Source of the DNA: Candidatus Aenigmatarchaeota archaeon
GTDB taxonomy: Archaea; Aenigmatarchaeota; Aenigmatarchaeia; GW2011-AR5; JAHLMP01
Length of the DNA stretch: 60,982 bases
Assembly: GCA_039091735.1 (NCBI GenBank)
Contig: JAWCLB010000004.1
Location: forward strand, 1 to 60,982
Reading direction: 5' to 3'
The position numbers and the translations under genes are program-made. Under the pieces are notes generated by a model. The model saw nothing but the letters and a program-made list of their open reading frames with translations. It was not told the DNA's origin and ran no database searches. Of the stretch, positions 5,706-57,874 are shown one piece after another; position 1 is the stretch's first letter; each line of letters starts with the position of its first letter.

Positions 5706-5990
5706 TTATTCTTGCTTCTCTTTTTCTACCTCAAATAATGATGGAGAAATTGATTTTATAATTACTATTTCTCCTATTGACTGGACCATCTGAAACGGAA
5801 TAACTACTCCTTTTTTGGATCCAACTATATCAGAAAGGAAAGAGCCTTTTATTGTATCGACCACAATTGCCCTTACACGAAACTTTTCAAGGTCTAATTC
5901 GAGGTCATTTATCTTTCCGCAATATGCTCCCTTGTCAGTGAATACATCCTTCCCAATCAATTCAGAAAACTCTTCAATTGTTGTCATCAT
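5706..5990 (-). CDS. PRC-barrel domain protein (CdpB-like)
   Basis: LIGKDVFTDKGAYCGKINDLELD...GVVIPFQMVQSIGEIVIIK signature. Confidence 0.88.
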   Translation of the reverse strand: MMTTIEEFSELIGKDVFTDKGAYCGKINDLELDLEKFRVRAIVVDTIKGSFLSDIVGSKKGVVIPFQMVQSIGEIVIIKSISPSLFEVEKEKQE

Positions 5991-6054
5991 TGAGCACCTT
6001 TTTATAATTCTTATTTAATGCTAAAAAGATTTAAATACTTTTCAGGTAGAGAAA

Positions 6055-6153
6055 TGGGCCCGAGGAGATTTTCATTTTAATTTGAACTCCTGTCACGAGC
6101 TCCCTTTGAGCCTTTTATAAGCTCGGATCCTAGCCAAGCTAGACGACGGACCC
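6055..6153 (-). tRNA. tRNA-Pro with two non-canonical introns (33/34 at 6106-6118; 59/60 at 6069-6080); spliced anticodon AGG
   Basis: GGGTCCG/CGGGCCC acceptor stem, GTCTAGCTTGGCTAGGAT D arm, CGAGC/GCTCG anticodon stem, AGGAG-TTCAAAT-CTCCT T arm. Both inserts form BHB-like motifs; spliced length 74 nt. Confidence 0.85.
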
Positions 6154-6250
6154 AAAATATCTTAATAAAAATATTTCGCTCATATAAATAATAGTATTGG
6201 TTGTATTCAAAATTTTAAGTATGACAAATAACGTTATATATATGAGCGAA

Positions 6251-6988
6251 ATGAATATTTGTGTAATCTCTGATTTGGAGGATTTTTATGTTGCACAGAT
6301 TTTTGGAAAAATTTATGAAATTTATAAACATAATATAAATACATTGAATGTTAGAGTTAAAAATTTCTCTATCATTGAAGCATGCTTTAAAATTTATGTT
6401 CTTGATTCAAATTTAAGGGATACAATTTTTATTTGTGTTATTGACCCTTATGTTGGAACAGAAAGAAAGGTTAAAATTATAAAAAAAGGGAAAAATTTTT
6501 TAATCGGACCGGATAATGGAATTTTCTCATTAATTGAAAATTTTGAAAAAATTATTGAGGTTGATACAAAAAAATTTAATGCTTCAGCGACATTTCATGG
6601 AAGGGATATATTTGCTGTAATAGCAGGAAAAATCTTAAAAGGAGAAAAAATAGAAAATTTTGGAAAAGAATGTTCAGGAATAGAAAAATTGGATTTAAAA
6701 AATAGAATTTTATATATTGATGAATTTGGAAGCATAATAACTTCTATAAAAAATGGGGAAATTAAGGCAAATCTTGGAGAAATTTTAAAGGTAAAAATAA
6801 GCAATGAAAAAGATAAAAAAGGAAAAATTTTTGAAGCAAAATTTGTAAGAACATTTGCTGATGAAAAGGAAAAACTTATTATTTACAAAGGGAGTTCTGG
6901 ATTTTTGGAAATTGGAAAATTTATGGATAATACAGCAAAAATTTTAAATGTAAATATTGAAGATAGAATTGAAATTTTAAATTTATAA
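6251..6988 (+). CDS. SAM hydroxide adenosyltransferase (DUF62, SalL/fluorinase superfamily)
   Basis: IDPYVGTERK, IGPDNGIF, TFHGRDIFA, YIDEFGS and GSSGFLEI motifs; likely start MNICVISD; visibly more AT-rich than its neighbours. Confidence 0.9.
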   Translation: MNICVISDLEDFYVAQIFGKIYEIYKHNINTLNVRVKNFSIIEACFKIYVLDSNLRDTIFICVIDPYVGTERKVKIIKKGKNFLIGPDNGIFSLIENFEKIIEVDTKKFNASATFHGRDIFAVIAGKILKGEKIENFGKECSGIEKLDLKNRILYIDEFGSIITSIKNGEIKANLGEILKVKISNEKDKKGKIFEAKFVRTFADEKEKLIIYKGSSGFLEIGKFMDNTAKILNVNIEDRIEILNL

Positions 6989-32600: not shown

Positions 32601-32763
32601 CGCCGGGAGCAGGATTCTCGCAATCAAAAATTCGAACCTGCGCGAGCAAAAGCTCACTAGCTCTCAAGGCTAGCGCGTTTAGCCCTTTTCGTTGGACCAA
32701 TAGAGACGCTCAATCATCTTGCAAGGCAATCATACCTTGAGGCGTTTGCTCCGCCATCCCGGC
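32601..32763 (-). tRNA. tRNA-Ser(TGA) with three non-canonical introns (D-loop about 32700-32746; 21/22 at 32679-32692; 59/60 at 32615-32630)
   Basis: GCCGGGA/TCCCGGC-G acceptor, CTAGC-CT-TGA-GA-GCTAG anticodon arm, long variable arm GAGC-TTTT-GCTC; BHB-like motifs at each insert; spliced length 86 nt. Confidence 0.88.
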
Positions 32764-57731: not shown

Positions 57732-57776
57732 CAATGAAGTTAAAAAATTTAATCATATATTATTAAAAAAATTACT

Positions 57777-57863
57777 GGGTCCGTAGCTCAGTTTGGTAGA
57801 GCGACTGATGTCAAGTCGTGGCTCTTAACCAGCAGGTCGCGGGTTCGAATCCCGTCGGGCCCA
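57777..57863 (+). tRNA. tRNA-Lys(CTT) with a 13-nt intron at 30/31 (57808-57820)
   Basis: Cloverleaf with CT-CTT-AA loop; BHB GAG-CGAC-TGA...GTCG-TGG-CTC; spliced length 74 nt. Confidence 0.92.
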
Positions 57864-57874
57864 TATTACATCAG

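Follow-up and report, generated by a model that had tools for sequence, protein, structure and literature searches.

The minus strand of positions 6055..6153 in the window (the whole stretch of 60,982 bases analyzed here) was confirmed as a real, twice-interrupted archaeal tRNA-Pro gene, and its DNA encodes an A at wobble position 34. A functional tRNA-Pro(AGG) gene at this site is highly probable. The explanation that we regard as best, and as reasonably likely, is a spliced, functional tRNA-Pro(AGG) whose A34 is most likely unmodified and which would read CCU and CCC. The gene, its introns, its anticodon, its conservation, the near-exclusion with GGG, and the lack of a TadA/ADAT homolog are shown by the sequences; we infer that the tRNA is spliced in the cell and accepts proline, and likewise which form A34 takes and which codons are decoded. 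The features of the gene are as follows.

6055..6153, minus strand: whole tRNA-Pro(AGG) gene, 99 nt; the mature form is 74 nt including discriminator A73, and CCA is not encoded
6154..6180, minus strand: A+T-rich sequence upstream of the gene, a possible site for an archaeal TATA box, though a weak indication in a genome of 35% G+C
6147..6153, minus strand: acceptor stem 5' strand, positions 1-7, pairing with 6056-6062 (7 of 7 pairs, one U-G)
6127..6144, minus strand: D arm, with stem 10-13/22-25 and a 10-nt loop with the GG of 18/19, from the sequence and the model alignment
6121..6125, minus strand: anticodon stem 5' strand 27-31, CGAGC, whose last four letters also pair with 6109-6112 as the 4-bp central helix of the splice motif
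6119..6120, minus strand: U32 U33, the end of exon 1
6106..6118, minus strand: intron 1, 13 nt, between 33 and 34, placed by its bulge-helix motif and by comparison with nine homologous introns at 33/34
6103..6105, minus strand: anticodon A34 G35 G36, with A34 at window position 6105 (T on the plus strand)
6096..6102, minus strand: G37 A38 and anticodon stem 3' strand 39-43, GCTCG
6092..6095, minus strand: variable loop TGAC, 4 nt, identical in the own genome's tRNA-Pro(UGG)
6081..6091, minus strand: T stem 5' strand AGGAG and T-loop positions 54-59 (TTCAAA)
6069..6080, minus strand: intron 2, 12 nt, between 59 and 60, with the same place and motif in G001 and G008
6055..6068, minus strand: U60, T stem 3' strand CTCCT, acceptor 3' strand, and discriminator A73

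As encoded, the anticodon stem CGAGC/GCTCG encloses 20 nt rather than 7, and the T stem AGGAG/CTCCT encloses 19 nt rather than 7. Once 13 and 12 nt were removed, all 21 cloverleaf pairs formed (a 7-bp acceptor, a 4-bp D, a 5-bp anticodon, and a 5-bp T helix, with a 4-nt variable loop), and the conserved tRNA positions U8, A14, G18 G19, G53, U54 U55 C56, and C61 were present. The identity elements of proline tRNAs are G35 G36, G37, A73, and G1-C72. All of them were found here, and the T loop and the U-U-N-G-G-G-A anticodon loop are also shared with the tRNA-Pro(UGG) of the same genome. No credible reading frame overlapping 6055..6153 was found; the neighbors are a PRC-barrel gene (5706-5990, minus strand) and a SAM hydroxide adenosyltransferase gene (6197-6988, plus strand). 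A sigma-70 promoter scan of the upstream stretch is inapplicable to archaea.

The position of the splice sites follows from the folding of the precursor. A bulge-helix-bulge motif has two 3-nt bulges on opposite strands with a 4-bp helix between them and is cut after the second letter of each bulge, a rule that reproduced the 37/38 intron of the own genome's tRNA-Pro(UGG) gene. In intron 1, GAGC at positions 28-31 base-pairs with GCTC inside the intron, positions 25-27 form the outer helix with G35-G37 (in the precursor, 3 bp between G35-G37 and 6126-6128), and a 3' bulge of three letters, AAA, lies between the two helices. A cut after the second bulge letter would start exon 2 at A34 and give the loop U-U-A-G-G-G-A; a slide of this cut by one A is possible and leaves the product unchanged. 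In intron 2, the T stem (5 bp) serves as the outer helix, TTCA/TGAA (4 bp) is the central helix, and the two bulges read AAT, which places the site at 59/60 and restores the T loop as TTCAAAT. Longer introns with the same helices sit at 59/60 in G001 and G008. Neither intron has the inner helix beyond the bulges that belongs to the strict bulge-helix-bulge form, and in both the 5' bulge widens to a small loop, with a total of 9 nt in one intron and 8 nt in the other. Both introns are of the relaxed bulge-helix-loop type, as that type is given in the cited passages of PMC5829648.

The same 33/34 architecture was found in eight proline tRNA precursors of seven genomes and, by eye, in G026 and G018. 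The third letter of the 3' bulge, which becomes position 34, is A in the own genome (G000), G001, G008, and G051, U in G034, G053, G044, G026, and G018, and C in G044, and position 34 is followed by GGG-A in every proline precursor with a 33/34 intron. The central helix co-varies among these motifs (GAGC/GCTC, GAGC/GCTT, CGGC/GCCG, and GGGC/GCCT). As we read the precursor, what fixes the anticodon as AGG is the bulge-helix motif together with the nine homologous 33/34 introns. The first-pass annotation had gone further, stating that any splice giving a 7-nt loop with U33 yields TT-AGG-GA. We enumerated by eye the eight ways to keep 7 of the 20 loop letters: keeping zero to three 5' letters gives AGG, keeping four gives AUG, and keeping five to seven gives AUA. 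Since the splices that keep four to seven letters also retain U33, that statement was too broad, but no alternative splice changes the first anticodon base, as each of the eight loops carries A34. The A34 is read directly from the sequence at window position 6105 (T on the plus strand), where the annotation had placed it. The rest of the annotation's reading, a tRNA-Pro gene with two noncanonical introns, a 33/34 splice, and anticodon AGG, agreed with the stems, the covariance model described below, the splice motif, and the intron-free loops of relatives.

The annotation had also predicted that automated scans would miss the gene, and they did. ARAGORN, with and without intron mode, made no call at 6055..6153, and Rfam RF00005 had no match at 6055-6153, whether at the gathering threshold, at an E value of ≤10 on 5950-6250, or in the whole genome. 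The gene falls below the RF00005 gathering threshold because of its two introns. We built a covariance model, R1, from 17 natural intron-free tRNA-Pro genes of relatives (74 model positions). In its alignment, 357 of 357 cells were paired (100%) and 14 of the 21 pairs changed on both sides; none of 500 shuffles reached the same, and slid controls paired at 25-54%. Run over the 60,982-base window with filters off, R1 matched 6060-6149 on the minus strand with 40.9 bits (E value of 1.1e-8), the second of six matches at an E value of ≤10, and the alignment treated 13 letters of the anticodon loop and 12 of the T loop as surplus. On a copy of the locus, the score was 62.9 bits with all 74 model positions aligned. 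The locus at 6055..6153 is among the best nonseed matches of this proline-only model.

The top R1 match in the window, at 57777-57863 on the plus strand, is the window's other tRNA by this model and the only window tRNA seen by standard tools. ARAGORN called it Thr(UGU) or, with intron mode, Leu(CAA); by eye and by comparison with G001, it is a tRNA-Lys(CUU) whose anticodon stem is interrupted in its 5' strand by a 12-nt intron. ARAGORN's labels for other intron-bearing tRNAs of the own genome, among them "Thr" or "Leu" (57776-57864), "Arg acg" (C13:1110-1201), and "Stop tta", disagree with the sequences and were left out of the analysis. Our own scan alone recovered a 162-nt tRNA-Ser(UGA) at window positions 32602-32763 on the minus strand, with several introns including one of 16 nt in the T loop; its counterpart in G001 is 173 nt long. 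Across the own genome (465 kb in 21 contigs, 35% G+C, 63.6% complete), Rfam gave 17 tRNA matches and our own scan 24 genes. Most of these genes are interrupted, at least nine of them by T-loop introns of 11-50 nt. The tRNA-Val(GAC) gene (C13:1112-1200) has a D-arm intron, and a 206-nt gene (C1:32598-32803) has several introns. No SSU rRNA was found in the own assembly.

Within the tRNA set of the own genome, proline is served by AGG and UGG. The relative G001, analyzed over its whole assembly (713 kb, 85% complete), has about 37 tRNA genes, with AGG, UGG, and CGG for proline and G34 in other four-codon boxes (Thr GGU, Val GAC, Ala GGC, Leu GAG, and Gly GCC). The A34 is confined to tRNA-Pro in both genomes, and their other four-codon boxes use G34: the further ANN tRNAs that the first-pass annotation had raised as a prospect numbered zero among the 24 genes of the one and the about 37 of the other. 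Two other departures from the usual pattern were seen among these tRNAs. U33 is almost universal in tRNA anticodon loops; the tRNA-Ala(GGC) genes of the own genome (C1:1977-2071, minus strand) and of G001 (C5:25616-25729, plus strand) have C33 in a U-C-G-G-C loop, and both keep G3-U70. A further relative carries a tRNA with the anticodon UAU (Ile) at G005:C1:37668-37742, an anticodon nearly absent from archaea and named for two genomes only in the cited part of PMC6000648.

We searched 70 genomes of the same order (0.4-1.2 Mb, eight families) with sequence patterns for tRNA-Pro. Pro(AGG) was found in 20 of the 70, spanning 14 genera and four of the eight families, by patterns that require one D-arm motif and miss other forms and in assemblies that are incomplete. 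Reversed-pattern controls gave no match in four of the pattern searches and one in the fifth. In 16 of the 20 genomes, the loop is uninterrupted and reads YTAGGG(A/T); six of these (G041, G044, G054, G009, G022, and G026) have a D-arm intron, and 10 were found by the first pattern. The Pro(AGG) gene of G051 has the 33/34 intron. The orthologs in G008 and G001 share 82% and 81% identity over the 99 nt, with both introns in place. Since the proteins flanking the gene in the own genome had no match at an E value of 1e-5 among those flanking it in G001 and G008, this orthology rests on the tRNA gene itself. A finding of G34 in relatives, which had been named in advance as part of a refuting case, did not occur; the orthologs have A at position 34. 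All 19 extracted Pro(AGG) genes have 7 of 7 acceptor pairs and A73, and their anticodon stems differ with compensation (CGAGC/GCTCG, CGTGG/CCATG, GGAGC/GCTTC, CTGGC/GCCAG, TAAGC/GCTTA, and others). Beyond the order, strict pattern matches were obtained in 4 of 301 further genomes of the class. Three of these out-of-order genes were read to the end; two are complete with introns, and the third, in G125, has a GGG-type body with two stem mismatches.

Pro(GGG) genes, which differ from the others in their body and have the loop TTGGGGY, turned up in 15 of the 70 genomes of the order. AGG largely excludes this G34 isoacceptor: only 1 of the 34 genomes with either gene (G044) has both, and 36 of the 70 have neither by the patterns used. 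For the resulting table (1/19/14/36), the one-sided Fisher P value of 0.03 makes the exclusion look stronger than it is, as related genomes are not independent. Both states occur within genera g19, g26, and g2. Five relatives that are 87-97% complete (G015, G033, G017, G005, and G023) have AGG, UGG, and CGG and no GGG among the best 28 of 96 R1 matches. The first-pass annotation had asked whether Pro(GGG) is absent from this genome; none was found in the own assembly, which is 63.6% complete, such that Pro(GGG) or Pro(CGG) may lie in the unassembled part. G044 (75% complete) has all four proline isoacceptors, AGG, GGG, UGG, and CGG, and may preserve an ancestral set that in other genomes lost either AGG or GGG.

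As for where the AGG genes come from, 10 of the 19 have a UGG gene no more than about 1.2 kb away. In a weak tree of 53 tRNA bodies without the anticodon loop (67 columns, 25 of 47 forks open), 18 of the 19 AGG genes fall among the UGG and CGG genes, GGG stands apart, and AGG does not form one clade. For the most part, the AGG genes look like offshoots of genes with U34 or C34 that came to replace the G34 gene in its role. Such a takeover would have happened either several times or once, with later homogenization between neighboring genes.

Codon usage was compared with these tRNA sets. In 279 long frames of the own genome (3964 proline codons), CCU makes up 34%, CCC 7%, CCA 50%, and CCG 9%. 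Samples of 4.5-40 kb per genome were taken from 17 AGG and 14 GGG genomes. The AGG genomes have a median G+C of 0.41 versus 0.47 and a CCU/(CCU+CCC) of 0.70 versus 0.63, differences that are modest and confounded by kinship, with G004 going against the trend. This fits an A34 tRNA being favored where CCU dominates, although the trend is small and kinship confounds it. CCC is never abandoned and accounts for 2-23% of proline codons in the 17 AGG genomes. Some tRNA must therefore read many CCC codons, which fits A34 and I34 equally.

Our model for the gene begins with a precursor carrying two short introns in relaxed bulge-helix-bulge motifs at 33/34 and 59/60. EndA (404 amino acids) and RtcB would excise both introns and join the exons to a 74-nt tRNA with the loop U-U-A-G-G-G-A. 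Both proteins are encoded in the own genome, EndA with the Pfam N-terminal and catalytic domains and the RtcB ligase with a score of 577 bits. The EndA gene (C12:39413-40627, minus strand) encodes a single protein in which one N-terminal domain and one catalytic domain are clear and a second stretch resembles a catalytic domain weakly; it adjoins tRNA-Lys(UUU) and tRNA-Asp genes. The tRNA-Pro(AGG) would fill the role that tRNA-Pro(GGG) has in other archaea, reading CCU and CCC beside tRNA-Pro(UGG). Unmodified A34 would pair fully with the common CCU and would also read CCC, since the first two codon pairs are G-C. That A34 stays unmodified is, in our estimate, somewhat probable. It is favored because A34 occurs only in the proline box, without TadA/ADAT and with the G34 isoacceptor replaced, and because of experiments with AGG tRNAs in bacteria. 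In E. coli, an AGG tRNA with authentic A34 decoded CCU about as well as CCC with no detectable inosine. Reading extended to some degree to the other two proline codons, and similar behavior is reported for an A34 mutant of Salmonella tRNA-Pro (Chen et al. 2002, quoted in PMC11066159); the authors linked this breadth of reading to the two G-C pairs of the codon (PMC11066159, in the passages cited).

The same functional gene could also have its A34 converted to inosine by an enzyme other than TadA/ADAT, in which case the tRNA would read CCU, CCC, and CCA. We consider this unlikely, although the persistence of CCC in AGG genomes would suit it and nearly all natural A34 tRNAs elsewhere are converted (PMC11066159 and PMC8007984, in the parts cited). 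A possible editor is at hand in 10 of the 20 AGG genomes, which encode a ComEB-like protein of the cytidine deaminase fold. An unrecognized tRNA adenosine deaminase would not be far-fetched, as archaea make m1I57 and, to our knowledge, their m1A57-to-m1I57 deaminase has never been identified. However, no genome of the 70 exceeded the cutoff of the TadA model NF008113, with nothing in the own genome and no match at an E value of ≤0.001 in 11 of the 20 AGG genomes, G001 included. Partial matches of 60-85 bits occurred in seven genomes, only two of which (G054 and G026) are AGG genomes. The cytidine/deoxycytidylate deaminase families PF00383 and PF14437 had no match in the own genome, and the ADAR/Tad1 domain PF02137 had none in the five good AGG genomes. 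These searches answered the first-pass annotation's suggestion to look for deaminase-fold genes: there were none in the own genome, and the matches classified in relatives were ComEB-like. PF00383 is present in 47 of the 70 genomes, and all eight deaminase-fold genes tested were best described as ComEB/dCMP deaminase, including one from a GGG genome, G006. The ComEB-like protein is equally found in 10 of the 15 GGG genomes, and no deaminase-fold gene was found in five AGG genomes (G000, G004, G037, G048, and G023). Moreover, A34 is seen only in the proline box, where the unmodified base suffices, while an inosine system would be expected to spread as it has in eukaryotes. That members of the order make wobble inosine on tRNA-Pro with a deaminase unrelated to TadA/ADAT, or unrecognizable as such, we consider quite improbable. 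In G006, a ComEB-like deaminase gene (C30:8824-9437) lies about 200 bases from tRNA-Pro(GGG), probably by coincidence.

The remaining alternatives concern the gene rather than the base. Were tRNA-Pro(UGG) to read all four proline codons, the AGG gene could be a redundant duplicate of the UGG gene that drifts without function. The closeness of many AGG genes to UGG genes and the grouping of AGG bodies with UGG/CGG rather than GGG would agree with such an origin, and the G125 gene outside the order looks like a damaged GGG-type gene. Against decay stand the 20 genomes and 14 genera that hold the gene, its intact stems, compensatory changes, splice motifs, and invariant G35 G36 G37, and its near-exclusion with Pro(GGG); drift, besides, would not fix A34 across families. 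We judge decay very unlikely. An artifact, either a base or assembly error at window position 6105 or another splice site giving a different anticodon, is more improbable still and in our view barely credible. Placement of reads from four runs yielded no contigs over base 6105, which leaves room for an error, but four runs of one study contain 68-100% of the sampled words of 5800-6400, and two of them may be the source; no RNA run was listed among those containing the stretch. G001, G008, and G051 likewise carry A at the corresponding place in the motif, as do 16 uninterrupted loops, and no choice among the eight possible 7-nt loops removes it. Lateral transfer from bacteria or eukaryotes was considered and set aside, as the tRNA body matches the archaeal proline tRNAs of the same genomes.

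A standard point on which Archaea differ from the other two domains is that they have neither A34 tRNA genes nor wobble inosine (PMC8007984, PMC11066159, PMC6000648, and PMC8450103, in the passages cited). Archaea are described as being without ANN tRNA genes and the A34 deaminase (PMC8007984, PMC11066159, and PMC8450103), and ANN genes were singletons among 167 archaeal genomes (PMC6000648). The string "AGG" is absent from the main text of PMC6000648, and a full-text literature search, as far as its texts extend, returned no report of an archaeal Pro(AGG) gene among the papers listed. The A34 tRNA described here is no stray: at least 20 genomes keep it, they belong to 14 genera, and the G34 isoacceptor is largely excluded. 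If A34 is unmodified, its routine use in nature, known so far from mollicutes and organelles only, would extend to this lineage, and in just the codon box predicted by laboratory work; these organisms would then allow one to ask in nature why A34 is avoided elsewhere. If it is inosine, a new enzyme would await discovery. Should that enzyme be unrelated to TadA/ADAT or unrecognizable as such, Archaea would have their first case of wobble inosine, and A34 deaminases would have arisen independently for a third time. As tRNA finders miss or miscall such genes, the tRNA sets of small-genome archaea and their "missing isoacceptors" need reexamination.

Several known systems resemble this one in part. 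The multi-intron tRNAs of Thermoproteales, ARMAN, and other DPANN likewise have several short introns outside 37/38 with relaxed motifs, occur in genomes with EndA, and are missed by standard finders (PMC5829648 and PMC8450103, as excerpted). Here, however, the intron parts U33 from the wobble base, and the anticodon is unreadable without solving the splice because its first letter, A34, sits in the 3' bulge of the motif. The eukaryotic cytosolic tRNA-Pro(AGG) is also gene encoded and replaces a missing GGG isoacceptor, and it is converted to IGG by ADAT2/ADAT3 (PMC8007984, in the part cited). In the archaeal case, no ADAT/TadA homolog was found, the body matches the archaeal tRNA-Pro native to the order, A34 occupies one box instead of eight, and the introns at 33/34 and 59/60 are of archaeal type. 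The laboratory AGG tRNAs with A34 (the Salmonella tRNA-Pro G34A mutant and an orthogonal M. jannaschii tRNA in E. coli) have the same anticodon (PMC11066159), but these are mutant or engineered tRNAs in bacteria, whereas this one is natural, archaeal, and conserved over many genera. Mycoplasma tRNA-Thr(AGU) and yeast mitochondrial tRNA-Arg(ACG) similarly combine small genomes with A34 and no deaminase (PMC11066159, in the sections cited). Those are bacterial or organellar, serve other boxes, and are usually the sole or nearly sole tRNA of the box, while here UGG coexists, as does CGG in relatives. Finally, sporadic ANN genes have been listed in archaea, with Leu-AAG, Val-AAC, Gly-ACC, and Arg-ACG in single genomes and Arg-ACG in M. 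ruminantium (PMC6000648 and PMC8450103). In the cited parts of these sources, they are singletons in 167 and 217 genomes, one is explained as lateral transfer, and Pro-AGG is not named. In contrast to such isolated genes, Pro(AGG) here is clade-wide and native.
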